Shown here piece by piece: positions 3,888-57,638 of a DNA stretch of 64,000 bases. Under the pieces are notes generated by a model. The model was not told the DNA's origin, made no database searches, and saw only the letters and a list, made by a program, of their open reading frames with translations. Both the position numbers and the translations under genes were made by a program. Every line of letters begins with the position of its first letter. Position 1 is the first letter of the stretch. Origin of the DNA: an uncultured Alphaproteobacteria bacterium (GTDB lineage Bacteria; Pseudomonadota; Alphaproteobacteria; RF32; CAG-239). Where the stretch lies: the NCBI GenBank assembly GCA_944393685.1, contig CALYAW010000008.1:772-64771 (forward strand), written 5' to 3'.

Positions 3888-4691
3888 ATGCGTCTGATTA
3901 TCCAAAACAACTACTCCGAATGCTCTAAATGGGCTGCCAACTATGTTGCATACAAAATTAAAGCCTTCCGCCCGACGGCAAAAAAACCATTTGTTTTGGG
4001 ATTAGCAACAGGCTCTTCTCCTTTAGGCATGTATGAAGAACTTATTCAGATGTACAAGACAGGAAAGCTCTCATTTGCCAATGTTGTGACATTCAATATG
4101 GATGAATACATAGGTCTAGGCCCCAATGATGCCCAAAGTTATTATAACTATATGTATCAAAACTTTTTCAATCACATAGATATTCCCAAAGCCAACATTC
4201 ACCTTCTTAATGGTCTGACCAAAGACTATCTCAAAGAATGTGAAAATTATGAAGATACAATTCGCCGCTATGGCAAAATACATCTACAAATCGGCGGAGT
4301 AGGATCAGACGGACACATCGCTTTTAATGAACCAGGTTCATCATTAAGTTCCCGCACACGCGTCAAAACTTTAACAACCGAAACAATTGAGGCCAACTCA
4401 CGCTTTTTTGGCGGAGACATGAGCAAAGTTCCGACTACGGTTTTGACCATGGGAATAGGAACCATTATGGATGCCGAAGAAGTTTTGATAATTGCCACCG
4501 GCGATAAAAAGGCGCGTGCCATACACCATGCGGTTGAAGGAAGCATCAACCATATGTGGCCGATAAGTATCTTGCAAATGCATCAACACGGAATTATAGT
4601 TTGCGATGAACCGGCTACAAATGAGCTAAAAGCGGACACCGTACGCTATTTCAAAGACATAGAAAATCAACTACGTCCAAAAATTAAATAA
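3888..4691 (+). CDS. nagB: Glucosamine-6-phosphate deaminase
   Basis: VLGLATGSSP, FNMDEY, GHIAFNEPGSS. Confidence 0.95.
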   Translation: MRLIIQNNYSECSKWAANYVAYKIKAFRPTAKKPFVLGLATGSSPLGMYEELIQMYKTGKLSFANVVTFNMDEYIGLGPNDAQSYYNYMYQNFFNHIDIPKANIHLLNGLTKDYLKECENYEDTIRRYGKIHLQIGGVGSDGHIAFNEPGSSLSSRTRVKTLTTETIEANSRFFGGDMSKVPTTVLTMGIGTIMDAEEVLIIATGDKKARAIHHAVEGSINHMWPISILQMHQHGIIVCDEPATNELKADTVRYFKDIENQLRPKIK

Positions 4692-4759
4692 ATTTTTTGA
4701 CAAACGCCGATTATGGCGCTAGATTAATTATATCTAACCGAGACAAAAGGATTAAGGCT

Positions 4760-5596
4760 ATGTTTACGTTGATAAAAGATTCTTATAAAATGTACTTAAA
4801 GAGCTTCCCTATTATCTTGCTCTTTGCAGTTCCGTTACTTTTTCTTTCAGGAATTGCCTCATGGATAGAAAACTCCGAAATTTTAAGTAATGGAATGTTG
4901 TATTTTTATTATGCAACTTTCATTTTAATTCCGATAATAAGTGTCGCGACAGATATTGCCTTATATCGTCGTTTTTTTGGCTTCTCGATAATTAATCCTT
5001 TCAGCAGCCTAAAGCCATTCATTATCTATCTTGTCACACAATTGGCTCTGGGGCTGGTAGCTTCTGCCCCCATAATCCTTTTTCGCTATATATTTGACAT
5101 GTTCGGTATGCCCAACCTACCGGCATTCATTTTAGCAATCTTTCTCGACTTATTTATTGGTATTTATCTTCTGGCTCGTTTCAGCATTTTATTCCCGTTG
5201 ATTGTCCAAAATAAAGTACCAAGTTTAAAAGAATTTTCGCAATACACAGCCAAACCCTATAAAGAATGGATGATGGTAGCCTTTCTTGTTTATATGCCTT
5301 ACGTTATCTTTAACTATGTTATTTCCTGCCCGTTTTTAAATATTTTGGTTGTTAATCTGTTTGCTTTCGTATTTATTTGCTTTAACATTAAATATACGGA
5401 AAAATTTCGTGTTCCAACCACAAAAGCAGCAGCATCAGCACTAAAAAAAGCTCCTGTTGCACAAAATGATTCCAACAAAAAAGAAGTAAATATTATTTCT
5501 GCCAAAGCATCAACAAGAAAAATATCTTCAAAAAAGACAGGGATGTCGCGGACCAAAAGCACAACCAGCAAGTCTACGACGAAAAAGCCCAAATAA
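4760..5596 (+). CDS. Hypothetical multi-pass membrane protein with K/S/T-rich basic tail
   Basis: Several hydrophobic segments; start moved to ATG 4760 after AAGGA. Confidence 0.7.
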   Translation: MFTLIKDSYKMYLKSFPIILLFAVPLLFLSGIASWIENSEILSNGMLYFYYATFILIPIISVATDIALYRRFFGFSIINPFSSLKPFIIYLVTQLALGLVASAPIILFRYIFDMFGMPNLPAFILAIFLDLFIGIYLLARFSILFPLIVQNKVPSLKEFSQYTAKPYKEWMMVAFLVYMPYVIFNYVISCPFLNILVVNLFAFVFICFNIKYTEKFRVPTTKAAASALKKAPVAQNDSNKKEVNIISAKASTRKISSKKTGMSRTKSTTSKSTTKKPK

Positions 5597-5613
5597 CTTT
5601 TTTTAATCAAATG

Positions 5614-5649
5614 AGCAGGCTATGACAAATTGTCATAGCCTGCTTTTTT
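5614..5649 (+). terminator. Rho-independent terminator
   Basis: Perfect inverted repeat agcaggctatgacaa/ttgtcatagcctgct plus T-run. Confidence 0.8.
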
Positions 5650-5691
5650 ATAAATAAAATTTATTTTGTCAAAGAGACGCTTGATTTGTTG

Positions 5692-45635: not shown

Positions 45636-45705
45636 CTTTAGAAAAAGCCTTCAAATGTCGGGAAATGCCCTTTTGTAACATCTGAGACAGTTGGGTGAGA
45701 CAGTC

Positions 45706-47526
45706 ATGGCCTTAAAACAAAATCATTTGGAACGCAGAAATCACACCTATTATTTCCGCTATTGGATACCCAAATCACTCCAACCTTTCTTCAAAAAAAC
45801 GCACGTTAGGTATTCTTTAAACACTAATGATTACAATATAGCCATCCTGCTATTGAAGCGAGAAACTTTTAAGTTTGATACGTTAATCAATGATTTGGAA
45901 CGGCTGCTGATGGAAATAAAAAACAACAAACTCATTCTTTCCGATGACGATATCGAAAATATCGTTGCCAGCCGCATTAAAGAGATTCAAAACAAGTTAG
46001 ACGATTCTTATTTTCAAATTAAAAATAATCAGCTCTCGGTACATGAGCTTGATATCACTATGCTCAGCCGCTCGGATTATGAACATTCCGATAGTTATGG
46101 TTCTTATGAAGATTTTAAGGATGAGCAAGTTGTCAGCTTTGTAAAGAAATATATCACTTCGCTCAAACAAAACAAACGTATTCCCCCTTCGGTATTTGAT
46201 TTCTTAAAACGAACCGTTAAAAAGAACGCGGTTGAACCTGAGCCCAATCAAAGACCGGAATGGCTGGATAAGCTGGAAAATCATTTGGCTCTGGCCGATG
46301 ATTATGCTCTGAACAGAGCCAATGCCATTCAAACCGACAACCGCAATTTCTACATTCCGGCAGTCATTGAGCGTTGCTTAAGTTATATAGAAGAAGAAAG
46401 AACCGCCAATACCGTTCGTTCGCCGCAAATTAAAACACATTGGAAGACTCTGTTTGAAAAATTCAGAGAATATAAGAAAAATGTCAAAGGAACCGGCGAT
46501 AACACTTTATATCAAGATGAAACCTGTCTGGATGTGGTGTTCAGTTTGGTTAATAAGAAATATGTTGAAAATTTAACCGCTAAAGACTGTGATACGATTT
46601 CAACCAAAATCTATTATGTGCCACGCGGTTGGAAGAAGATGAGTGCTTCCAAACACAAAAAGCTAACCGATATGCTTTTGCCCGAGATTGGTGATAAGAC
46701 CATGTCCACCACCACGGTCAAACGCTACTTACGCGTATTCAAAGAATTTTTAACCTACGCCCAGAGAAAAGGTTATGTCAGTGCGGACTTAAACGTTCAG
46801 ATAGAAATTCCGGTCAAAGATAGCCGCCAAAGCTATGACCGCTTTACCAAAGCCAAGTTATTGAAGATATTTAATCCTGAATATTATCCCTATCCGGAAG
46901 ATGAAAACTTTGCCTATCGCTACTTTATTCCGCTAATGGCCTTATACAGCGGTGCTCGTCTGAACGAATTATGCCAACTTTATTGCGATGACATCAAAAA
47001 AGAAAACAATATTTATTATATGATTTTTACAGATGAACGTCCCGACCAACATTTGAAAAATAAGGTTTCTAAAAGAATTGTGCCGATTCATCCCAAAATT
47101 ATTGAAATGGGCTTTTTAGATTATTTGCTTTCGGTGAAATCCAAACGCAAACAACGCGTATTTTATCAGCTTACTTACGCTCAATATAATCACTATGCCG
47201 ATAAAATGTCCAAATGGTTTGGCAGATATTTAGAAAGCATAGGTATCAGCGGCAAGAGAAAAGTCTTTCACAGCTTTCGCCATACGGTAAAACCGGAACT
47301 CCGCGATGCCAATGTCGGCAGAGAATATCAAAACGCTATTTGCGGATGGGAAGGTATTGATACCGGTGAAAGAGTATATGGCAGCAATTTCCCGATTGAA
47401 ATCCTTTATAACGAAATCTGCAAATTGCAATATCCGTATTTGGATGAAAACTTAAAGAAAATCAAAGCCCGCGTCCCCTCACCCCGCCAAAGACTAAGAA
47501 TGCGTCTTTATGGTGATAAAGCGTAG
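45706..47526 (+). CDS. Tyrosine integrase with DUF6538-like N-terminus
   Basis: YYFRYWIPKSL…SLNT; catalytic SGARLNE, HLKN, FHSFRH, ICGW, RVYG. Confidence 0.9.
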   Translation: MALKQNHLERRNHTYYFRYWIPKSLQPFFKKTHVRYSLNTNDYNIAILLLKRETFKFDTLINDLERLLMEIKNNKLILSDDDIENIVASRIKEIQNKLDDSYFQIKNNQLSVHELDITMLSRSDYEHSDSYGSYEDFKDEQVVSFVKKYITSLKQNKRIPPSVFDFLKRTVKKNAVEPEPNQRPEWLDKLENHLALADDYALNRANAIQTDNRNFYIPAVIERCLSYIEEERTANTVRSPQIKTHWKTLFEKFREYKKNVKGTGDNTLYQDETCLDVVFSLVNKKYVENLTAKDCDTISTKIYYVPRGWKKMSASKHKKLTDMLLPEIGDKTMSTTTVKRYLRVFKEFLTYAQRKGYVSADLNVQIEIPVKDSRQSYDRFTKAKLLKIFNPEYYPYPEDENFAYRYFIPLMALYSGARLNELCQLYCDDIKKENNIYYMIFTDERPDQHLKNKVSKRIVPIHPKIIEMGFLDYLLSVKSKRKQRVFYQLTYAQYNHYADKMSKWFGRYLESIGISGKRKVFHSFRHTVKPELRDANVGREYQNAICGWEGIDTGERVYGSNFPIEILYNEICKLQYPYLDENLKKIKARVPSPRQRLRMRLYGDKA

Positions 47527-47541: not shown

Positions 47542-48327
47542 ATGCAAAAGCATAAAGAAGAAGAAAAAGAAATTTTAAATTATTTTCTATCAACTCCAAT
47601 GGGAAAAAGATGGTATAACAAACTCAATGTAAAAGAAACTATAGAAACAGAAAGCCCTGATTTTATTTTTCTTACTCAAACAGGAAAAAAAATTGGCTTA
47701 GAAGTAACAAAATTTCTTGTTAAAAGCAAACATCGGCGTGCTCTGCAAGCATTGAAAAATACAGGAAATAAAATCTGTAATTATTCCCTAAAACATCATA
47801 ATTTACCATTATCAATAATTATTGATAAATTTGATAAAAGGATTCACCAAGGAAGAACAAAGAAAGACCTTCTTGATGCCGTATATAATCCTGGATTTAT
47901 TGATATATTCAACGAAAAAGAAATAAAGGCTCAAATTGAACCATTTATTGATGATAACGTAGAAAAATTAAAAAAATTTCCTAGATTAGTAAAAAAGTGG
48001 GTCAAAGTTAATGATGAATTTTTATGTTTTACAATTTCAGGTTTCCCCAATATTGATGGGCAGTACGACTGCTTCGTTAACAACGAATGCTTTAGTTTAG
48101 AAGACCCTTTTGAACAATTACAACAAACAATAGATAACAAAAATGAAAAATACAATACTTTTATAAAGAAATGTGACGAGTGCAATTTGTTAGTTTTCAA
48201 TCCGAGTGTATCTGAAGGGAATTACTGTCATTTTACCAATAAAATAAAGCAACATAAATTTATATCAAAATATAAACAGACTTTTTTCTGTGGAGCTTAT
48301 ACTCCGTCTTGTATCAACCTAAAATAA
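47542..48327 (+). CDS. Hypothetical protein with PD-(D/E)XK-like motif
   Basis: ESPDF…IGLEVT near the N-terminus. Confidence 0.55.
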   Translation: MQKHKEEEKEILNYFLSTPMGKRWYNKLNVKETIETESPDFIFLTQTGKKIGLEVTKFLVKSKHRRALQALKNTGNKICNYSLKHHNLPLSIIIDKFDKRIHQGRTKKDLLDAVYNPGFIDIFNEKEIKAQIEPFIDDNVEKLKKFPRLVKKWVKVNDEFLCFTISGFPNIDGQYDCFVNNECFSLEDPFEQLQQTIDNKNEKYNTFIKKCDECNLLVFNPSVSEGNYCHFTNKIKQHKFISKYKQTFFCGAYTPSCINLK

Positions 48328-48375
48328 TTCACCCCTTAAATTGTTCCCTAAAAATAACAACAAAACAGGAAAATA

Positions 48376-49680
48376 CTATTTCTTAGTCAAAGCATCTTCT
48401 TTGTACTTTTTAATTATATCATTCTTATTCTTCTGATCGATAATATCCATAGATCTTTTAATCCCCAATCTCTGTCTGCATTCCGCCGCCGATGAATTTT
48501 TAATTTTTTCTTGATATTTATTAAAGAACGCGAACATTTCTTTATCTATCTCTGCATCTAAAGCATTAAATTCATTTTTAGCGTGACAAAATGAGTAATG
48601 ATGAGACCAGCCTGTTATTTTTCCATTTACAGTATTTAGCGTTTCAAAAAAACTTTTCCTTTTTATTGCTTTATCATTCAAAGCATCTGTTAGCAAATTA
48701 CGTATTTCTGTTTTTATTTTGTTAAAAGCTTTTTGAGTAGGTTTTATCCGACATTTTGAAATATCAACACCTAAATATTCGATACAATTTTTTGCAAGAT
48801 TAACACAATCTTTTGTTGTTTTATTTACAGAAATACCCAGCCCCAAAGCTTCCAAATCAGGCACTAATTGTTCTAAAAAAGCCTTTTCAACATCTTCTTT
48901 CGTTTTACCTAAGATAATAACATCATCTATATATCTAAGATAGGTAATATTTGAATTTGAAAGCATTTTCAAATCTAAATCATACAAATAAATATTACCA
49001 AACAACGGTGATAAACAACTTCCTTGAGGAACTCCTTCTTCCGTATAAATATACTGGTAATACAAGTCTTCTCTATCTTTGATTGTATCTAAATTAGAAA
49101 CCTCTAACTGAATAGCATTTTTTAACAATTTCATAAAATCATCATCATGACAAAATTCAGCAATCCTATTTAAAACGCTATCACTCTTAATTTTAGTAAA
49201 AAATGATTTAATATCAGTTGCTTTTGCAAAAATATGCCCTTTATCTCTAAGAGAACAATATATTGTCTTTACTGCCATAGCCACATTTTTCTTTCTAAGG
49301 CCACCATAGCTCGCATCACAATTAAAATATTTTTGCATTTTAGCATGATTTTGTAAGATATCTAACAAACACTTTTGTACAATTCTACCTTCAACCGTAT
49401 TTAGGTTAACAACAGGCCTTTCACTTTTTTTGTCTTTCTTTTTAATTGGTGTTGCTTCTGAACTGAATTGAAAAGTATGTTGCCGCAATTGTTCTCTGAG
49501 ATTTGCCAGACTTTGTTCTATATTTTTCTGAAAATGTTCGGCCTTGCCTTTCATCTTTTCATTTTTTGATGCAGATATGCGTGCCTGAACATGCCCCCAC
49601 GCACTACGCAAATTATCCAACTTGCATAGCTCATTATAAAATTTTGTTCTTATTCGACTACATTTTTTCACTTTGGGCAC
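48376..49680 (-). CDS. Reverse transcriptase, DRT2/UG2-like
   Basis: ERPVV, GRIVQ, SYGG, DIKSFF, GVPQGSCLSPLFGNIYL, RYIDD, EYLG; 434 aa; no retron VTG motif and no endonuclease domain. RT call is firm; subclass rests on the upstream template features. Confidence 0.85.
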   Translation of the reverse strand: MPKVKKCSRIRTKFYNELCKLDNLRSAWGHVQARISASKNEKMKGKAEHFQKNIEQSLANLREQLRQHTFQFSSEATPIKKKDKKSERPVVNLNTVEGRIVQKCLLDILQNHAKMQKYFNCDASYGGLRKKNVAMAVKTIYCSLRDKGHIFAKATDIKSFFTKIKSDSVLNRIAEFCHDDDFMKLLKNAIQLEVSNLDTIKDREDLYYQYIYTEEGVPQGSCLSPLFGNIYLYDLDLKMLSNSNITYLRYIDDVIILGKTKEDVEKAFLEQLVPDLEALGLGISVNKTTKDCVNLAKNCIEYLGVDISKCRIKPTQKAFNKIKTEIRNLLTDALNDKAIKRKSFFETLNTVNGKITGWSHHYSFCHAKNEFNALDAEIDKEMFAFFNKYQEKIKNSSAAECRQRLGIKRSMDIIDQKNKNDIIKKYKEDALTKK

Positions 49681-49698
49681 TCAGCAGCTCTCTCAAAC

Positions 49699-49974
49699 CT
49701 ATTCATGAAGGGGGACTGTAGCTTCAATTGGTGTAGTAGATATTATCTCTAGACCTATGTCAAGTTCTTGGACTTGTGTCCTTGTTCTTGACTTCTCGGA
49801 TGTATTGACGGCTTGGGATATTTGGCTTCCTTCTGCTGTCTCTTTCCTTATTGAAACAGTCAAACTCTTTGCAAAGCGTTTCTTCTTTCGAAGTTGTGCT
49901 TTCAACTCTAAGATTCCGGAAATCTTTATTAGACAAAATTTCCAAAACAATTCTTTTGTTTGCTTTAATTTCAT
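49699..49974 (-). CDS. 91-aa ORF containing one in-frame copy of the 120-nt template unit
   Basis: RBS GGAGGT 6 nt before the ATG; extended -10 TGtTAAACT (49993-50001) and TTGACT (50014-50019) upstream. Confidence 0.55.
   Translation of the reverse strand: MKLKQTKELFWKFCLIKISGILELKAQLRKKKRFAKSLTVSIRKETAEGSQISQAVNTSEKSRTRTQVQELDIGLEIISTTPIEATVPLHE
49714..49856. repeat. 143-bp perfect direct repeat, copy 1 (RT-proximal)
   Basis: gactgtagcttcaattgg…tttccttattgaaa, identical base for base to 50140-50282. Confidence 0.97.
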
Positions 49975-50044
49975 TTCTTTACCTCCAACTTGAGTTTAAC
50001 ACTTTTTGTTTTTAGTCAAGAACAAAATTTCAAGCTTCATTTCT

Positions 50045-50291
50045 CGCCAGCTTATCTCCAACTTCAAAGAAAATCTAGCAACCGCCTGCTGAGTTCCACT
50101 TCTGGATTGAGATACGGTTCTCTTCTTTATGAATAGGCTGACTGTAGCTTCAATTGGTGTAGTAGATATTATCTCTAGACCTATGTCAAGTTCTTGGACT
50201 TGTGTCCTTGTTCTTGACTTCTCGGATGTATTGACGGCTTGGGATATTTGGCTTCCTTCTGCTGTCTCTTTCCTTATTGAAAACTACTGGC
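50045..50291 (-). ncRNA. Putative DRT2-type template ncRNA (boundaries approximate)
   Basis: Promoter TTGAAT-N16-CATAAT upstream; ACA motifs 120 nt apart (50263-65 and 50143-45); 5' GCCAG can pair with CTGGC at 50046-50. Confidence 0.6.
50140..50282. repeat. 143-bp perfect direct repeat, copy 2 (RT-distal)
   Basis: Identical to 49714-49856, offset 426 bp. Confidence 0.97.
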
Positions 50292-50295
50292 TTTA

Positions 50296-50323
50296 ATTAT
50301 GCATAAAAAATTTGGATATTCAA
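50296..50323 (-). promoter_or_regulatory. Candidate promoter of the RT-associated RNA
   Basis: Minus strand TTGAAT-N16-CATAAT. Confidence 0.5.
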
Positions 50324-50567
50324 TAAAAAATGTTAAAGAACATACCTTTTTTAACATTTTCTTTGAAATGCTTGGAATTGCTAGGGATTTTATTTAAGCC
50401 TCTAGGGTGGCAAGGTAAAAATGTTAAACTTTGTTAGTTTTAATAACTTTTCTTAACATTTTGCCCTTTTATTTGATTTGGTATCAGTTCATTCAAGAAG
50501 CTTATTCTTCCCTAATACCCCTAGTTTTAATTTTTGAAATTTTGATTTTTTTAATTTTACTCAAAAG

Positions 50568-50601
50568 AAAAAGCCTTACAAAAAAATGTAAGGCTTTTTT
50601 T
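50568..50601 (-). terminator. Terminator after the small recombinase
   Basis: aaaagccttaca/tgtaaggctttt inverted repeat. Confidence 0.65.
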
Positions 50602-50620
50602 ACTTGGAGTTGATTTGATA

Positions 50621-51250
50621 TCACACTCTTGCATTTTCAACCGCATTTGCGAGCATATGTTCATTATAATTAAAATATCTTTGCGTGGTTGAGATGTTTT
50701 TATGATTAGCCAGCTTTTGCACCAAACAGATATTCACGCCGGAATTTACCAATTTTGATACAAACAAATGTCGGCCGAGGTGGCTGGCTCCTTTTATGCT
50801 GAATTTGCGATAAACGGAACTAAACAAACGGCTGATACTCACGCGATTGTAGGGTTTGTTTTGCTTTTGCGATGTAAATAAATAGCTCTCTTGGTTCAAA
50901 TTGCTTCGTGTTTGTTGCAGATACTTCAAATATTCGGCAAATTCCTTCTTAATCTGCGAGTTCAAATAGTAGGAACATTTATTTTTGCCTTTGTTCTTGT
51001 CATAATCTAGGCAAATGGCGTCTTTGACTTTCAGGGTTTCGGTATAAACATCCTTAACCTGAAGATAACAAAAATTGATAGAACGCATACCGTTCAGCGA
51101 GCATAAAAACATCATCCGGATTTGTTCGGCGTGTTTCATTCCGCTGATATAGGTCAAAATATCTTTAATTTTCTTATCATCTACAAAAACGTCATTTACC
51201 ATTGATTTTACTCTTTTTAACTTATTTATACTCATTTTGAAAGGAGACAT
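50621..51250 (-). CDS. Small tyrosine recombinase (catalytic domain only)
   Basis: NGMRS, KNKG, SHLGRH, LANHKNISTTQRY; start uncertain. Confidence 0.85.
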   Translation of the reverse strand: MSPFKMSINKLKRVKSMVNDVFVDDKKIKDILTYISGMKHAEQIRMMFLCSLNGMRSINFCYLQVKDVYTETLKVKDAICLDYDKNKGKNKCSYYLNSQIKKEFAEYLKYLQQTRSNLNQESYLFTSQKQNKPYNRVSISRLFSSVYRKFSIKGASHLGRHLFVSKLVNSGVNICLVQKLANHKNISTTQRYFNYNEHMLANAVENARV

Positions 51251-51270
51251 AATAATATTGAAAGGAAATC

Positions 51271-51426
51271 CTAGTTTTTAATGATGGCTTGATAAAACAC
51301 TTTATAACTTAAACCTTGGGTCAAAATCCCCACACCGCCTTGGCATTGCCACCCGTTTTGAAGTGCCGCATTCACATATTCAATCAGATTATCCAAACTT
51401 TCCGAACATAAAATATCATATTTCAT
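51271..51426 (-). CDS. Small protein, DUF1737-like (51 aa, not in the ORF track)
   Basis: MKYDILCSESLDNLIEYVNAALQNGWQCQGGVGILTQGLSYKVFYQAIIKN*; RBS AGGAG. Confidence 0.6.
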   Translation of the reverse strand: MKYDILCSESLDNLIEYVNAALQNGWQCQGGVGILTQGLSYKVFYQAIIKN

Positions 51427-51438
51427 TTTAAATAACTC

Positions 51439-51765
51439 CTAGTATTCATAAGCATACATCACGGTTAAAACACGGTTCGTCTGACTAGGGTCAGCTGCAT
51501 TCGGCGAAGCAAATTCAAAATTGCGGTCATAATAATCAATCTTCCAAAAAATCTTTTCACCCTTGAAACTAAACGCTCCGAAATCTTTTTCGCCGTAGGG
51601 ATTGTTTTCTTCACTGAAATCCTTAAAATGACGAACCTTGTTCAAAATGACTTCAATATCATCAAAACTATTGGCTCTAATTCCGGGCGTTAAAACAAAA
51701 GTTCCCAGAGATGGATTAGCTCTGAAATCATCATTAAGCTTGGCGATTGCGGCGATATTATTCAT
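51439..51765 (-). CDS. DUF3768 family protein
   Basis: IAKLNDDFR, NNPYGEKDFG, FWKIDYYD, RVLTVM. Confidence 0.85.
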   Translation of the reverse strand: MNNIAAIAKLNDDFRANPSLGTFVLTPGIRANSFDDIEVILNKVRHFKDFSEENNPYGEKDFGAFSFKGEKIFWKIDYYDRNFEFASPNAADPSQTNRVLTVMYAYEY

Positions 51766-52285
51766 GCTCGCTTTCCTCTAACAATCTGATACAAAGATAT
51801 TCGGTCATACCTTCTTGTTCGGCGGCATAATCCCAAACCGAAAGACCACGATTGTTCTTTATCTCAGCATTAGCTCCGTTATCAATCATAAAGTCCAAAA
51901 TCCGAATTCGCATTAAGGCTTGGGGATGACGAACCACATATATAAAAGAAGTATTGCCGAACTTATCGCGAGCGTTAATATCTGCTCCGGCTTCAAGCAA
52001 AACCGCCAGAGTTTGCGGCGAACTGCGTTTAACTGCGGCAATCATAAAAGGTGTTTCTCCGTTGCGATTGCGAGATTTAACATCCCCGCCGGCTTGAATA
52101 AATGCTTTTATCACATCTGGCTCATAAAATTCTTTACAAACCCACATAAAAGGTGTCCAACCGTGTTTGTTATAGGGCTCATTAACATCAAAACCTTGCT
52201 TTAAGATAGATTTGATACGTTCAAAATCCATATCATAAAGTGCTTTCATCAGTATATTTTCTTCATTAACCATCTGTTTTTCCAT
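51758..52285 (-). CDS. Ankyrin-repeat protein
   Basis: GWTPFM, GETPFMIAA, GADINARDKFGNT; start uncertain. Confidence 0.85.
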   Translation of the reverse strand: MEKQMVNEENILMKALYDMDFERIKSILKQGFDVNEPYNKHGWTPFMWVCKEFYEPDVIKAFIQAGGDVKSRNRNGETPFMIAAVKRSSPQTLAVLLEAGADINARDKFGNTSFIYVVRHPQALMRIRILDFMIDNGANAEIKNNRGLSVWDYAAEQEGMTEYLCIRLLEESEHE

Positions 52286-52456
52286 GAATTGTTTTAAAAA
52301 GATGGTCCCCGGGGTAGCATTCAAAAATGCTAAAGTCAAGCACTTTTTATAACATTTTTCGTGTTATGTTATTGATTCTGAATGATTTTATTTTAAATTC
52401 AAAGGGTTGCAGGGAAAATATTTTTTTGTTGTTGAAAGTGAATCTATGCCAAAGGT

Positions 52457-53041: not shown

Positions 53042-53590
53042 TCAATTTTTGTAAAGCACCGCTCCGTTATCAAGCAATAGGTTAGCAATATCCAGTTCTA
53101 TTCGCTCCAAGGCCAAGGTTAAGGCTGTTTCACCTTGGATATTGAGCCAATTCACATCAACACCTTTGTTTATCAACATTTGGATAGTTTGTAATTTGAT
53201 ATCATCTTCCATATTTTCATTCAATATTACCGACATAATAGCGTTATATCCGAATATATCGGTTCTATTGACTTCGCTTCCCTCGGCAATAAGAAAATCA
53301 AGCGGCTCTTTTTCCATACAGAAATAACAAGCCACCAAAAATAAACTGGCTCTGCGGCGATTGATTGATGAATTTAAGTTAAAATTGTTGCTTCTAATCA
53401 ATTTTTTCAACTCGCTGACCGAATTGATATCAATATTACCTTCGCTCTCAAAATTATACGGCGGATTAACCGGCGTATTCTTTAATCTCTCTTCTATTTG
53501 CTTGATTTTTTCTTGGACTTCAGCCATTTCTTCGATGGTAATAAATTTGGAATAAGTTTTATCTTCGGGATTATACATTAACATTTTCAC
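53042..53590 (-). CDS. Ankyrin-repeat protein
   Basis: VNRTDIFGYNAIM, GVDVNWLNIQGETALTLA, LLLDNGA. Confidence 0.8.
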   Translation of the reverse strand: MKMLMYNPEDKTYSKFITIEEMAEVQEKIKQIEERLKNTPVNPPYNFESEGNIDINSVSELKKLIRSNNFNLNSSINRRRASLFLVACYFCMEKEPLDFLIAEGSEVNRTDIFGYNAIMSVILNENMEDDIKLQTIQMLINKGVDVNWLNIQGETALTLALERIELDIANLLLDNGAVLYKN

Positions 53591-54219: not shown

Positions 54220-54630
54220 ATGAGCAAAAGTAAAGCTACATTATCTATTACCGAACGTCTGTTATTGGACTTCGTCAAATACAAAACAAATAACAATCAT
54301 AAATTTTTTATGGGGAATGATAAAATCGCCATGGCTTTAGGATTAACGGTAAATTCCGCCAAAGTGATGATAAACGGACTTATCCGTGAAGGGTATCTTA
54401 TCAAATCAATGGATACCCACGGCCGCAGAATATTAGAATTATCCGACAAACCATACTTAACCATCGCTTGTGTTGATTTAAGCAACGTTGATAAACGCAT
54501 TATATTGCAAGAAGCCCTGAACTTTCAACGAGACGCCGAATACTACCAAAAACAATACGAATTTGAAAAAGCACGAGCCGACAGACTTCTGTCCGAACTC
54601 ACACAGTTGAAGCTAAGCAGAATAGGCTAA
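54220..54630 (+). CDS. Winged-HTH DNA-binding protein with C-terminal coiled coil
   Basis: FFMGNDKIAMALGLTVNSAKVMINGLIREGYL; RBS AAGGAG. Confidence 0.65.
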   Translation: MSKSKATLSITERLLLDFVKYKTNNNHKFFMGNDKIAMALGLTVNSAKVMINGLIREGYLIKSMDTHGRRILELSDKPYLTIACVDLSNVDKRIILQEALNFQRDAEYYQKQYEFEKARADRLLSELTQLKLSRIG

Positions 54631-57600
54631 ACTCTTTTAGCTTCTTTATTTGGATTTTGTTTCAAATCATTGTATAAAGCAGCAAACAAAGCTTTTTTCA
54701 TAAAATCCATCTTTTCACTATCTTGGAACAAATCCTTAAAGAACTGGTCATTTTGTTCGTATCTACTAACCATTGTTTCAGTAAAGTTTTCGTTATAAAG
54801 CCCCTTGAATAGAGTTTTATTTCTTTCTTTTCCAGCCTCAACCAAACGTTCATCCTGTTTTAAGTCTTCCATCACTTGGCTTAAAACTTTATCTTGTCCT
54901 GAAAAATTAGTTCCAAATCTTTCATTAAACTTTTCAATAATGGTTGAAAGAGGGGATTTCTCTTTTTTACTACTACCTGAACCACCCTTAGGGGCTGAAG
55001 TTGTTCCTACCTTATCTTCTAGAATAATTCTACCTTCAAAGGTCTTTTCGTTCTTATAATATTCAAGCAAAAGCTTATCATCAACGTTAATTGGAGAACC
55101 TTTTTCTCTCCTAATACATTTGATTAAAAATTTAGCAAAAACATAAAACTTTTCTAATTCAGCATCAAACATTCTAATAACTTGAGTTACAAAAGAATAC
55201 ATTTTCAAATAATTGTTTAAAGATGTTCTAAATTGCTCTTGTTCTACTTCTTTCATAACCTTAAAACGGTCTATTGCTGGTTGTAAAATGCTTGATAATT
55301 TTCCTAAATCATCCATATTGGCGGCAGAAGCATAATAAATATCCGCAAATCTTTCTACTTCTTGATTTTGATAAATTTGCATATCATCTAAAATTGATTT
55401 AAGTTTATATAACTCATTGGGGTCAATTTCTTTATCTAAAATTGTAGCTTGGTAATATTGCTGAAAAGATTGTTTAATATCTTCTGCTTCATTAACAAAG
55501 TCCAAAACAAAGGTATCTGTTTTTCCTTGTGTTGTTCTGTTGAGGCGAGAAAGGGTTTGAACAGCTTTCACATCATTGAGCTTTTTATCAACAAACATTG
55601 TATGCAATAAAGGTTCATCAAATCCTGTCTGATATTTTTCTGCCACAATCAGAATATTAAAATCATTGTGAAAATATTCTGGTAACTGTGTCTCTTTTAT
55701 ATGCTCTCCATCGGCTGTAACATTTAATTTTGTTTCAGAATAAGTAATACCATTATCTGTTAAGTCTCCAGAAAAGGCAACTAAGACATTTATATCTTTA
55801 TAATCATGGTCTGCAATATATTTTCTAAATTCTTGTAAATAGCGAACAGCATGTAATCTAGACGGAGTTACCACCATTGCTTTAGCTTTTCCGCCAATTT
55901 TATTTTTGGTAATTTCGTTAAAATGCTCAACCATAATGGCTGTCTTTTGGGCAATATTATGAGGATGCAATGTTTCAAAGCGAGAAATTGCTTTTGCTCC
56001 TTTAGATGTTTCCAGTTCAGGATCATCAGCTACTTTTTTGATTAGTTTGTAATAAGTCTTATATGTCGTATAATTTTGTAAGACATCTAAAATAAATCCC
56101 TCTTCAATAGCCTGTTGCATTGAATAGATATGAAAAGGTTTAAATGTTCCGTCTGGTTGTCTTTCTCCAAATCTATTCAAAGTTTTTGCTTTAGGAGTTG
56201 CCGTAAAAGCAAAAAAGGATAAATTTTTATGATTTCCTTGTGCAGCCAATGTTTTAATCAGTAAATCTTCACTATCTTCTTTAGAAAGCTCTTTTTTACC
56301 TTCAATATCGGCATATTCTTTTAAAGTTTCTTCTAAATTTGCTAAGCCTTTAATTACTGTTCCGGCATCTTTGCCTGATTGTGAAGAATGGGCTTCATCA
56401 ACAATAATGGCAAAGTTTTTATTATCTGAAGTAATATCTTTGTATATCAACGGAAACTTTTGCAATGTAGAAATAATGATTTTTGTATCACTATTGATAG
56501 CTTCCAAGAGCTCTTTTGAACCATTTTTCACTTTTTTAACCACACCTGCTACATGGTCAAATTGATAGATTGTATCTTGTAACTGAGCATCTAAAACTCT
56601 TCTGTCGGTTAAAACAATAATAGAATTAAAGATATTTTCATCATGGTTGTCGTGAAGTCCGGCCAATTGATGAGCTAGCCAAGCAATAGAGTTAGATTTT
56701 CCTGAACCAGCCGAGTGTTGAATTAAATAATTTTTTCCTACTCCGTTTGTCTTTACATCAGCTAATAGTTTGGTAACAACATCTAATTGATGATATCTTG
56801 GAAAAATCATAATTTCTTTGGTTTTGACACCTTTTTTATCTTTTATAATTTGCAAATGCAGATATTTTTGCACAATTTCCATAAAACTATCTTTAGCAAG
56901 AACTTTCTCCCAAAGGTAAGATGTTGCAAAACCATTCGGATTAACAGGATTTCCTTTACCTCCAACATTTCCGGCTCCATTTGAACCTTGGTTAAAAGGT
57001 AGAAAATAAGTGCTGTCTCCTTGTAATTTGGTTGTCATATAAACATTATACAAATCCACGGCAAAATGAACCAATACTCTATTCTTAAATTCAAAAATGG
57101 CATCTTTTCCGGCTCTGTCAAATTTATATTGAGAAATTGCATTGCTATAATCTTGTCCGGTAAATTGATTTTTTAATTCCATAGAAACTAACGGAATACC
57201 ATTTAAAAACAAAACAATATCTATACTATTTTCATTAGATAACGAATAGTGCAATTGGCGAGTGCAGTGTAGAATATTTTGATTATATAAATCAACGGCC
57301 TCTTGGTTGATATGGCTTTCTGGCTTAAAATAACATAGATAAAACTTTACACCGCGGTCTTGGAAAGGTTTTCTCAAACATTTGAGCAAACCGTTATCCT
57401 TTATTGCCTTGCATAAGTTAGAAATAAAACATTCTTCCGGATTAACAGGATAATGAGTTTGATAACGTTTCCAAGCCTTAGGCTGAGTTGTTTTAATAAA
57501 ATTAAGCAAAGTTTCAGTATCAAGAGCCAATTTTCGGTCAAAATTGGCTGGATTACCTTTTTGGTATCCTCCTTGGGTAATAAGAGAATGCTCAATTGCT

Positions 57601-57638
57601 TCTTCTAAATTTATTTCTTTTAAGTTATCTTCAGCCAT
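54627..57638 (-). CDS. hsdR: Type I restriction enzyme R subunit
   Basis: DIVLFLNGIPLVSMELKN, QHSAGSGKS, IVDEAHSSQ, FTATPK, QTGFDEP, VQTLSRLNR. Confidence 0.95.
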   Translation of the reverse strand: MAEDNLKEINLEEAIEHSLITQGGYQKGNPANFDRKLALDTETLLNFIKTTQPKAWKRYQTHYPVNPEECFISNLCKAIKDNGLLKCLRKPFQDRGVKFYLCYFKPESHINQEAVDLYNQNILHCTRQLHYSLSNENSIDIVLFLNGIPLVSMELKNQFTGQDYSNAISQYKFDRAGKDAIFEFKNRVLVHFAVDLYNVYMTTKLQGDSTYFLPFNQGSNGAGNVGGKGNPVNPNGFATSYLWEKVLAKDSFMEIVQKYLHLQIIKDKKGVKTKEIMIFPRYHQLDVVTKLLADVKTNGVGKNYLIQHSAGSGKSNSIAWLAHQLAGLHDNHDENIFNSIIVLTDRRVLDAQLQDTIYQFDHVAGVVKKVKNGSKELLEAINSDTKIIISTLQKFPLIYKDITSDNKNFAIIVDEAHSSQSGKDAGTVIKGLANLEETLKEYADIEGKKELSKEDSEDLLIKTLAAQGNHKNLSFFAFTATPKAKTLNRFGERQPDGTFKPFHIYSMQQAIEEGFILDVLQNYTTYKTYYKLIKKVADDPELETSKGAKAISRFETLHPHNIAQKTAIMVEHFNEITKNKIGGKAKAMVVTPSRLHAVRYLQEFRKYIADHDYKDINVLVAFSGDLTDNGITYSETKLNVTADGEHIKETQLPEYFHNDFNILIVAEKYQTGFDEPLLHTMFVDKKLNDVKAVQTLSRLNRTTQGKTDTFVLDFVNEAEDIKQSFQQYYQATILDKEIDPNELYKLKSILDDMQIYQNQEVERFADIYYASAANMDDLGKLSSILQPAIDRFKVMKEVEQEQFRTSLNNYLKMYSFVTQVIRMFDAELEKFYVFAKFLIKCIRREKGSPINVDDKLLLEYYKNEKTFEGRIILEDKVGTTSAPKGGSGSSKKEKSPLSTIIEKFNERFGTNFSGQDKVLSQVMEDLKQDERLVEAGKERNKTLFKGLYNENFTETMVSRYEQNDQFFKDLFQDSEKMDFMKKALFAALYNDLKQNPNKEAKRV

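Follow-up and report, generated by a model that had tools for sequence, protein, structure and literature searches.

A probable G2L4 reverse transcriptase cassette with paired long direct repeats in an uncultured gut alphaproteobacterium

The 64,000-nt stretch of DNA analysed here (the window) carries a reverse transcriptase (RT) gene that is preceded by two identical direct repeats. The locus is probably (at roughly 75%) a G2L4 (group II intron-like 4) RT cassette with the pair of repeats, called LDRs, that is typical of this family. This reading follows from the match of the RT to solved G2L4 enzymes, the recurrence of the layout in 36 of 49 related loci, and a published precedent: according to 10.1101/2022.03.14.484287, two LDRs of ~140 bp with a ~240-bp spacer lie within 1 kb upstream of ~70% of G2L4 RT genes. 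The repeat pair has been in print since 2022, so the architecture is known. A sequence-only reading of the window had proposed an undescribed arrangement of the DRT2 type, and its DRT2 framing was wrong. What is added here is a covarying fold encoded on the strand of the RT, evidence that the copies evolve in concert, conserved promoter-like elements, a leader that looks translated, and complementary flanks. These comparative results turn the role of the LDRs into testable hypotheses. The G2L4 RT is studied as a polymerase-theta-like repair model, and group II-like RTs are in use as tools.

The open reading frame of the RT was called from a GTG at 49680. The GTG at 49671 is the likely start, since homologous loci show an ATG or GTG at this position and a 1-nt indel lies upstream of it. 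Close RT homologues are 431–432 aa long. Pfam detected RVT_1 (92.7 bits) and GIIM (23.3 bits) and no other domain in the ~431 aa. In a search of solved structures, PDB 9d5x_A, named 'Group II intron-like 4 reverse transcriptase', matched query residues 13–413 at E 6.3e-50, and 9d4s_A matched at E 1.3e-49. The next-best solved structure after G2L4 was a group II intron RT (E 2.4e-13), and the solved Drt2 reached E 2e-05. The active site is YIDD, not YADD (RT residues 250–253). Its RYIDDVII aligns to RYIDDFLL of the solved protein, and isoleucine occupies the second position of the motif in 24 of 27 aligned homologues. The enzyme is group II-like with a thumb/maturase region, and it lacks DNA-binding and endonuclease domains as well as an intron RNA; Intron_gpII had no match in 48000–51500. 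These comparisons strongly support placing the RT in the G2L4 family. In a sample of 36 other genomes of the window's own genus, no match to the RT was better than E 6e-9. The host is represented by a low-GC (33%) gut alphaproteobacterial MAG.

The assignment to DRT2 did not survive the same searches. The NCBIfam Drt2 model NF041746 gave 56.7 bits against a cut-off of 390, and the PADLOC scores for Drt2 (50.6 and 43.6 bits) fell below those of 18 other models, with the generic RT model at 149.6 bits. RT_UG17 in PADLOC scored 131.2 bits, also under the generic model, and the search of solved structures favours G2L4. Membership of DRT10 was rejected, as the SLATT effector gene is absent beside the RT; Pfam found SLATT in 0 of 10 neighbouring ORFs. 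The two-template DRT2 variant first proposed for the window could draw on an RT with a structured RNA upstream and, in the window, on a repeat period of 426, which is a multiple of 3, and on one frame that stays open through the repeat. However, 22 of 29 loci have a period that 3 does not divide, and the variant, now scarcely credible, is refuted at the level of the RT family. An endless ORF of the DRT2 type running across the units was likewise rejected, since only 7 of 29 loci have a period divisible by 3, about the chance rate. The '120-nt unit with both ACA motifs' and the 'predicted cDNA end' of that reading presuppose a DRT2 model that is inapplicable here.

The repeat pair itself was exactly as first reported. 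An exact-match script gave two copies of 143 nt at 100% identity with a spacer of 283 bp, and a repeat scan gave 148 nt at 99% (49709–49856 and 50135–50282) with a start-to-start spacing of 426. The 143-nt repeat has these two matches only in the window's own 1.46-Mb genome, and a perfect 143-bp repeat cannot have arisen by chance in 64 kb. The pair lies directly upstream of the minus-strand RT gene. The order on that strand is P1, LDR1, the spacer (with a stem, P2, a Shine-Dalgarno sequence and the start of a short ORF), LDR2 and the RT (Table 1). With 143-bp repeats, a 283-bp spacer and 42 nt between repeat and RT start, the window fits the published LDR layout. An assembly artefact had been named as a possible source of the duplication, but an independent contig, contig graphs and depth show that both copies are genuine. 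Both are present in L019, an independent metagenome contig. In contig graphs from two DNA runs of two studies, a 343-nt contig (49827–50169) bridges the spacer and 30 nt of each copy. In run X1, possibly the same sample that yielded the window's assembly, the 143-nt repeat contig has a depth of 67.6 against 33.5 and 33.8 for its neighbours; the corresponding values in X5 are 14.1 against 9.7 and 7.5. The lower depth of the spacer in X5 (7.5, against 9.7 on the RT side) hints at a single-copy sub-population, a hint too rough for use.

Table 1. Coordinates of the features at and around the repeat pair in the window.
Feature	Position	Strand	Evidence or remark
G2L4-type RT gene, ~431 aa	48376..49671	-	ORF 48376-49680; RVT_1, GIIM and 9d5x_A matches
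Arm a', 3' flank of LDR2	49698..49710	-	complements arm a; holds the small-ORF stop codon
Small ORF P0002, 91 aa	49699..49974	-	GGAGG (49986-49982) upstream; starts in spacer, reads through LDR2
Proximal LDR2 (copy 1 of the sequence-only reading)	49714..49856	-	RT leader; ends 42 nt before RT start
Promoter-like P2 in spacer	49993..50019	-	TTGACT (50019-50014), 15 nt, TAAACT (49998-49993), TG 50001-50000
Conserved spacer stem AACCG...CGGTT, then T-rich stretch	50080..50119	-	alignments A5, A8
Arm a, 3' flank of LDR1	50125..50137	-	complements arm a'
Distal LDR1 (copy 2 of the sequence-only reading)	50140..50282	-	exact repeat; fold z -4.2
Promoter-like P1, TTGAAT-16-CATAAT	50296..50323	-	consensus scan, 9/12 hexamer matches
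Terminator-like site of tyrosine recombinase gene	50568-50599	-	terminator scan
Tyrosine recombinase gene, directly upstream	50621..51250	-	Pfam Phage_integrase, 69 bits

The same architecture was found beside homologous RTs. Among 49 related loci with enough upstream DNA, 36 carry a repeat pair whose proximal copy adjoins the RT. These pairs are 102–164 nt long, 95.6–100% identical and spaced at 343–426, and all of them are direct. A plasmid locus of Pseudomonas aeruginosa (L100) has two 137-nt copies at a spacing of 376. The second copy is missing in 13 of the 49 loci and is therefore dispensable in some hosts. In single-LDR loci, the promoter stands directly at the LDR and the start region of the small ORF is absent. 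Viral contigs contributed one related locus (L099), which has a single repeat-like element. Copies are 96.6–100% identical within a locus but only 32–97% between loci, and both copies in L019 show the same G-to-A change when compared with the window. The homogenisation of the copies suspected from the window was thus borne out, and these values strongly support the view that the two copies evolve in concert and are kept nearly identical in each locus.

Published work gives the RT and its repeats a context. In Park et al. (10.1101/2022.03.14.484287), bottom-strand RNA-seq depth is 20-fold higher across the LDRs, survival of DNA damage was 'modulated' when the LDRs were co-expressed, and the P. 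aeruginosa G2L4 RT is reported to carry out double-strand break repair by microhomology-mediated end joining. The G2L4 RT is described as a symmetric homodimer in 10.1101/2025.01.14.632616. The published biochemistry presents the enzyme as a free-standing DNA-repair polymerase with no need of an RNA partner. Within the literature searched, LDRs are mentioned only in 10.1101/2022.03.14.484287 and in none of the later G2L4 papers checked.

Each copy had been credited with its own closing stem formed with flanking sequence. These stems can be read on the minus strand and are recovered by RNAfold: GTAG-TTTTCAAT...ATTGAAG-CTAC for the distal copy and GACTG-TTTCAAT...ATTGAA..ACAGTC for the proximal copy. 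Both copies are predicted to fold into a closing stem with three hairpins, with z values against shuffles of -4.2 (distal) and -3.8 (proximal). In the window, however, the antisense strand folds better than the sense strand (-42.8 vs -31.3 kcal/mol). Across 12 environmental loci, compensatory changes occur at 25 of 34 predicted pairs. In the environmental clade, double changes are seen at 29 of 34 pairs, with many G-U pairs. Paired cells make up 87.7% of the environmental alignment against 43–46% with partners slid, and 0 of 500 shuffles reach the observed values; these counts come from an alignment that was itself fitted to the model, and from lineages that are related to one another. The 12 loci were used to build a covariance model (R1), which produced 47 matches in 84 sources. 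Every one of these lies upstream of the RT and on its strand, and R1 also matches both P. aeruginosa copies. Covariation strongly supports a structured RNA of ~110–160 nt for the environmental-clade LDR, encoded on the same strand as the RT and made up of a closing stem and three hairpins. R1 found no match at E <= 1 in the window or its gut-clade relatives (the window, L019–L027 and L008 are unmatched), so that no sequence-level homology to the environmental repeats is seen. In the gut clade, the shared fold is indicated by RNAfold topology and by 5 of 23 compensatory pairs among five sequences, and from this topology the window's LDRs presumably adopt the same fold. The earlier proposal of a functional RNA with a closing stem on the RT strand therefore stands on covariation for the environmental clade and on fold topology for the window. 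Rfam returned no match on the window's repeats and spacer, the sole match being the terminator of the upstream gene at E 0.1, and none at E <= 0.1 on nine environmental loci. ARAGORN found no tRNA- or tmRNA-like element in 49500–50700.

Promoter-like elements accompany both copies. Transcription from P1 would begin close to the 5' edge of LDR1. Both P1 and P2 are matches to the consensus only, and sites of the P1 type are no more frequent here than in shuffled sequence. Inspection by eye shows a -35 of the type TTGA(C/A/T), accompanied by a -10, immediately before the distal copy in 9 of 12 environmental loci. For the proximal copy, P2 is the closest conserved element of promoter type and lies ~137 nt upstream of that copy; it was missed by the promoter scan because its hexamers are 15 nt apart and the scan needs 16–18 nt. 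TTGAC is kept across 18 aligned spacers from both clades, and TTGACA...TAnAnT is common to 15 environmental loci. The sequence-only reading had given each copy a promoter of its own. P1 fits this for the distal copy, the proximal copy lies behind the conserved promoter-like P2 in the spacer, and the idea that each copy has its own transcriptional context is supported in spirit. Contigs from RNA libraries span LDR1 with the spacer and the spacer with LDR2; these contigs cover the stretch in part and are no proof of transcription, strand or ends. The spacer stem has ACGG/CGG among its few invariant columns and consists of five pairs with compensatory changes at two. It was considered as a terminator and was not flagged by the terminator scan. 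Another spacer motif, TGCAAAAACGTGCC, was considered as a sigma-54 promoter on the opposite strand and rejected, the GG-to-GC distance being one base short of the consensus. By eye, the 3' half of TGCAAAAACGTGCC could pair with downstream bases as a small hairpin in several loci.

The small ORF that begins in the spacer ends 27 nt before the RT start. It is quite improbable that its protein is the functional product of the region, with LDR1 a leftover partial gene duplicate, although several features are favourable to this idea. The ATG and Shine-Dalgarno sequence are kept in five of five gut-clade loci with indels in multiples of 3, 26 of 27 lineages keep the frame open across the repeat (14.5 expected), the stop falls ~1–25 nt past LDR2 in most loci, and the equivalent P. 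aeruginosa ORF (64 aa, MQKRA..., with a hydrophobic N-terminus) is annotated by NCBI's pipeline. However, the antisense strand is open as well in 21 of 27 lineages, and substitutions by codon position number 23/18/24 in the small ORF against 73/57/249 in the RT of the same loci; without a third-position excess, a conserved protein is doubtful. The ORF has no Pfam or PADLOC match, the single-LDR loci have a promoter at the LDR and no ORF start region, and a leftover duplicate would not remain 97–100% identical. Another frame of ~95 codons, open from LDR1 into the spacer in the window and in L024, was rejected as inconsistent in GC-rich loci; it is broken in L062 and intact in the close relative L051. 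The RT strand has no ORF of at least 50 aa over the distal copy.

The two copies have mutually complementary 3' flanks. In the window, arms a and a' form inverted repeat I18, which is 13 nt long at 92%. The longest Watson-Crick run from flank to flank has a mean of 7.7 and reaches at least 8 in 15 of 27 lineages. In contrast, the cross-locus control has a mean of 5.1 with at least 8 in 21 of 702, and three other controls gave 4.9–5.3.

The surroundings raise the question of whether the repeats act as DNA, either as sites of recombination or mobility (att-, res- or LTR-like) that neighbouring recombinases would use, or as a switch that deletes the spacer promoter. The gene directly upstream codes for a tyrosine recombinase, and a second integrase follows past the RT; the window also contains a type I restriction R subunit. 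Serine recombinases occur at 2 of 10 upstream neighbours tested in other loci, and Park et al. (10.1101/2022.03.14.484287) raise mobility as a possibility. In L020, whose RT is 98% identical, exactly one copy is present, with the upstream flank of the distal copy and the downstream flank of the proximal copy, though this may be an assembly collapse. On the other side, the covariation with G-U pairs and the strand bias of the 47 matches point to RNA, and the RT lies outside the repeats. Neighbours across loci are diverse (AbiEii, recombinases and terminase among them), with recombinases a minority. An invertible switch is unlikely because all 36 pairs are direct. A role of the repeats as DNA is highly improbable.

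It was also considered that the LDR RNA is a template or primer copied into cDNA, as in DRT2, DRT9 and DRT10, with two copies for switching or with copies homogenised by cDNA. This is clearly unlikely. The element is not a DRT2-type template, and the template role claimed by the sequence-only reading is unsupported. Those systems do share the layout of a structured ncRNA directly upstream of an RT (PMC12632851 and 10.64898/2026.04.29.721553). The cassette also sits amid mobile and defence-type genes, the repeat edges coincide with the predicted RNA edges, and the concerted evolution of the copies would suit cDNA-based homogenisation. One RNA-library contig terminates in adapter sequence at 49711, 3 nt beyond the repeat. 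Against this, the repeat unitig is 2.0 times as deep as its neighbours in X1 and no more than 1.9 times in X5, and there is therefore no extra DNA copy in these libraries, an argument that is weak because single-stranded DNA is poorly captured. The period is seldom a multiple of 3 (7 of 29 loci), and the units therefore do not join into an endless reading frame as in DRT2. Beside the RT, neither the window nor the other loci show a conserved effector partner, and published work assigns the G2L4 RT to DNA repair.

Within the G2L4 cassette reading, our best guess is that the LDR RNA binds the RT and serves as a regulator or cofactor. It is known that a group II intron-encoded RT binds domain IVa of its intron and autoregulates its own translation. 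A regulatory model is considered because the RT is kin to such intron-encoded RTs and a structured RNA precedes its start. By this analogy, the LDR RNA would be bound by the RT as intron RNA is bound by intron-encoded RTs. LDR2, in the RT leader and with the short ORF passing through it, would control translation of the RT in cis. LDR1, transcribed on its own, would either compete for the RT homodimer or bind it jointly, and the complementary 3' flanks may bring or tether the two copies together. This model as a whole is tentative, with chances somewhat below even; the regulatory or decoy copy offered in the sequence-only reading comes close to it. A bolder form, which is doubtful, holds that G2L4 RTs, instead of being free-standing enzymes, are ribonucleoproteins in which flank-tethered LDR RNAs, one per homodimer subunit, gate the synthesis or activity of the RT, and that RT-made cDNA keeps the copies identical. 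Should this doubtful form be true, the cassette might be an RNA-guided stress or anti-phage module, beyond a repair polymerase alone.

Comparison with known systems places the locus beside some and apart from others. Diversity-generating retroelements (DGRs) resemble the window in having two copies of ~100–150 bp near a group II-like RT, one adjoining the RT and the other a few hundred bp off, with information flowing between them. In contrast to DGRs, the copies in the window are identical, adenines included (0 mismatches in 143), the distal copy does not form the 3' end of a target gene, and there is no Avd-like gene; DGR membership was rejected on the 100% identity and the lack of an ORF over the distal copy. 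DRT2 (UG2) and DRT10 (UG17) also encode a structured ncRNA upstream of the RT, but their RT is of another family and the window has no SLATT partner. As described in PMC12632851 and 10.64898/2026.04.29.721553, they have one ncRNA gene and no 140-bp duplicate. Group II introns have a closely related RT and likewise a structured RNA before the RT start, whereas the window has no intron ribozyme and its element is duplicated. The nearest likeness is with P. aeruginosa. The repeat sequence there is not recognisably similar to that of the window, the RT of the plasmid copy has ~29% protein identity, and the small ORF of the window is longer (91 aa) with a less hydrophobic N-terminus. The G2L4 locus of P. 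aeruginosa AZPAE12409, like the window, combines a free-standing group II intron-like RT of ~410–430 aa with YIDD, direct repeats of ~140 bp with a spacer of ~240–280 bp directly upstream on the RT strand, and recombinase genes close by. The plasmid locus L100 has the spacer promoter, the TGCAAAAACGTGCC motif, the small ORF and, by eye, the flank complementarity in common with the window.

The RT gene of the window is preceded on its own strand by two copies of a repeat (LDRs), which are identical across 143 nt and are the only matches to it in the 1.46-Mb genome. The perfect 143-bp duplication described in the sequence-only reading was thus confirmed, and the closing stem proposed there for each copy is present in the sequence and was recovered by RNAfold. 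The duplication is genuine and not an assembly artefact. Both copies are present in an independent contig (L019), and the contig graphs of two DNA runs from two studies contain a 343-nt contig comprising the spacer and 30 nt of each flanking copy. The depth of the 143-nt repeat contig is about double that of its neighbours in both runs, at 67.6 versus 33.5 and 33.8 in X1, which may be the source sample of the window, and 14.1 versus 9.7 and 7.5 in X5. The RT is 100% identical in three MAG contigs (L001, L002, and L003) that start 536, 160, and 500 nt ahead of the RT match; these positions, calculated from where the matches begin, fall within a repeat copy, indicating that the repeat fragments short-read assemblies.

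Features of the RT cassette and its neighbourhood in the window
Feature	Position	Strand	Detail
Type I restriction R subunit	54627-57638	minus	1003 aa; HSDR_N, SWI2_SNF2, T1R_D3-like domains; 5 kb away
Ankyrin-repeat proteins (two)	51758-52339 and 53042-53590	minus	upstream of recombinase
DUF3768 protein	51439-51765	minus	upstream of recombinase
Terminator of upstream gene	50599-50568	minus	
Promoter-like site	50323-50296	minus	promoter scan
Distal repeat copy	50282-50140	minus	143 nt
Spacer	after distal copy	minus	283 nt
Proximal repeat copy	49856-49714	minus	143 nt
Spacer-started frame (P0002)	49699-49974	minus	91 aa
RT gene	3' of proximal copy	minus	
ORF between second integrase and RT	47542-48327		261 aa; no Pfam match
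Second tyrosine integrase	45691-47526	plus	611 aa; N-terminal DUF6538; converges on RT gene 3' end

The RT belongs to the G2L4 (group II intron-like 4) family. Its best two matches among solved structures are both named 'Group II intron-like 4 reverse transcriptase' (E 6.3e-50 and 1.3e-49, residues 13-413), followed by the next best at 2.4e-13 and Drt2 at 2e-05. The active site is YIDD, which Park et al. 2022 (10.1101/2022.03.14.484287) describe as a G2L4 hallmark. Pfam detects RVT_1 and a weak maturase domain, and the NCBIfam group_II_RT_mat model scores 157.7 bits, under its cut-off of 300. The locus had been read as a two-template DRT2 variant. This assignment failed, as Drt2 reaches just 50.6 bits in PADLOC, behind a generic RT model (149.6) and RT_UG17 (131.2), and 56.7 bits in NCBIfam against a cut-off of 390; the probability of a DRT2 system is negligible. 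Translation of the RT probably starts at GTG 49671 rather than at 49680. The family comprises 225 clusters at E <= 1e-30 in a representative library, nearly all of about 400-450 aa. One related locus (L074) also matches group II intron domain 5/6 (Rfam RF00029, 68 bits) at 2058-2134 on its minus strand, immediately after its G2L4-like RT gene and in the opposite orientation to that gene.

The same architecture was sought beside homologous RTs, and the two-copy layout is conserved across the family. The survey covered 49 loci in which at least about 790 nt precede the RT homologue (27-100% identity); 36 of them carry the repeat pair, or about 29 of 40 once duplicate loci are removed. These pairs are 102-164 nt long, 95.6-100% identical, and spaced by 343-426, and the proximal copy ends 25-103 nt ahead of the protein match. 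In seven further loci, on contigs starting near the RT, the distal copy is cut off by the contig edge. The pair extends to a P. aeruginosa plasmid (NZ_CP131792.1, L100), where the RT is 29% identical to that of the window and two 137-nt repeats are spaced by 376; the record annotates a 'recombinase family protein' and a TIR-domain protein after this RT (3905-5681). No pair was found in 13 of the 49 loci, 10 of which have a single repeat-like element adjoining the RT in a covariance-model search. Of 13 single-copy loci searched, one has the spacer motif upstream (L053, whose contig begins just 90 nt upstream of the element); the others, inspected by eye, have promoter-like -10 and -35 elements immediately before the element.

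In the window, the cassette is immediately preceded by a tyrosine recombinase gene, and Park et al. (10.1101/2022.03.14.484287) report that the cassette is often near tyrosine recombinases or other integrases. The same recombinase-RT neighbourhood occurs in a 60.8-kb gut metagenome contig with a 98% identical RT (L020), in which there is exactly one copy and no spacer, the copy being flanked upstream as the distal copy is and downstream as the proximal copy is in the window. Either the repeats recombined in nature and lost the intervening DNA, or the assembly collapsed them. That the repeats are DNA-level recombination sites is highly improbable. Upstream neighbours at ten other loci include two serine recombinases, AbiEii, a phage terminase, an IS200 transposase, and housekeeping genes, and two have no family; this variety implies that the approximately 2-kb cassette travels on its own. 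The restriction R subunit near the cassette suggests a defence or mobile island.

In the environmental clade, the LDR is an RNA-level fold on the RT strand. RNAalifold on 12 loci predicted a closing stem and three hairpins, with compensatory changes at 25 of 34 pairs. A search of 84 sources with the covariance model built from these loci yielded 47 matches, every one of them upstream of the RT and in its orientation; the two P. aeruginosa copies were matched as well (E 8e-5 and 1.5e-4). In an alignment of 41 distinct rows, which was fitted to this model and holds related lineages, 87.7% of cells pair versus 43-46% with slid partners, G-U pairs are frequent, and 29 of 34 pairs show double changes; the observed values were reached by 0 of 500 shuffles. 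The model has no match in the window's gut clade, which is too diverged. When folded individually, all five gut-clade sequences take the same topology, and 5 of 23 pairs show compensatory changes. The antisense strand of the window repeat folds even better than the sense strand; therefore, fold energy alone cannot settle the strand there. Bottom-strand RNA-seq depth was 20-fold higher over LDRs in Park et al. (10.1101/2022.03.14.484287); since the top strand is termed antisense there, the bottom strand is taken to be the sense strand of the RT.

The two copies are homogenised within loci. They are 96.6-100% identical within one locus, whereas orthologous copies between loci are 32-97% identical, and distal copies from different loci are no more alike than a distal copy from one and a proximal copy from another. 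The single change in L019 relative to the window is carried by both copies. Candidates for what maintains identity are RecA-type conversion, across a repeat distance of 426 bp, and conversion by RT-made cDNA. The LDR as a template for cDNA is an unlikely explanation.

The spacer of both clades contains a conserved stem with an invariant ACGG and then a T-rich stretch, a promoter-like element TTGAC(A/T)...TAnAnT, and GGAGG with a start codon. A -35/-10 pair sits just upstream of the distal copy: the promoter scan identified it in the window, and inspection by eye placed one in 9 of 12 environmental loci. Downstream of the spacer signals, 41-76 nt before the proximal copy, TGCAAAAACGTGCC is nearly invariant in the environmental clade and P. 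aeruginosa (L032, L037, L042, L048, L051, L053, L062, L065, L068, L074, L076, L081, L082, L085, L088, L092, L093, L096, and L100). Conservation extends even to codon wobble positions, and in several loci, as read by eye, the 3' half of the motif can form pairs with sequence a few nt further downstream. The motif is missing from the window's clade, which has CAAAAAGTG within the spacer promoter.

The spacer-started frame continues across the proximal copy, and in most loci its stop codon lies no more than about 25 nt past the repeat. At least one sense frame is open through the repeat in 26 of 27 lineages versus 14.5 expected from dinucleotide shuffles, and 21 of 27 are likewise open on the antisense strand. 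Substitutions by codon position (23/18/24) show no third-position excess, compared with 73/57/249 for the RT at the same loci. The small ORF may be translated as a leader or small peptide; in our reading, selection on the encoded amino acids is not visible, and a small protein as the real product is improbable.

The 3' flanks of both copies are complementary, with 12 of 13 nt paired in the window (50137-50125 versus 49710-49698). The longest Watson-Crick run has a mean of 7.7 over 27 lineages and is 8 or more in 15 of them, versus a cross-locus mean of 5.1 (8 or more in 21 of 702) and 4.9-5.3 for three other flank combinations; the helix sequences differ among lineages. Contigs from two RNA-library runs cover the spacer with the proximal copy (49711-50124) and the distal copy with the spacer (49900-50276), although they are uninformative on strand, level, and true ends, and may reflect DNA carry-over. 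The former (run X15) stops at 49711, 3 nt past the proximal repeat, joined directly to adapter-like letters, which hints weakly, from one contig in one run, at a discrete RNA end.

Intron RNA binds intron-encoded RTs. By analogy, it can be hypothesized that LDR RNA binds the RT. RT synthesis would be set by the proximal copy, which lies in the RT leader and would be translated as part of the frame crossing it. The distal copy would be transcribed separately from its own promoter and serve in trans as a competitor or co-ligand. The complementary flanks would join two identical LDR domains, an arrangement that fits the symmetric homodimer reported for the G2L4 RT (10.1101/2025.01.14.632616). This model as a whole is tentative, with a probability of about 0.4.

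The locus had also been proposed as an undescribed system, a claim superseded by the repeat pair already published for the G2L4 family (Park et al., 10.1101/2022.03.14.484287), in which about 70% of RT genes follow a pair of ~140-bp LDRs separated by a ~240-bp spacer. In the text available from that paper, LDR co-expression 'modulated' survival after DNA damage and no function is ascribed to LDRs. Two later G2L4 papers contained no mention of LDR, direct repeat, or long direct, and a literature search found no further paper on G2L4 repeats. The interest of the locus lies in the role of the repeats, for which the comparisons yield concrete tests. Relative to the published systems, it is a diverged new member of a known architecture, from a gut alphaproteobacterial MAG.
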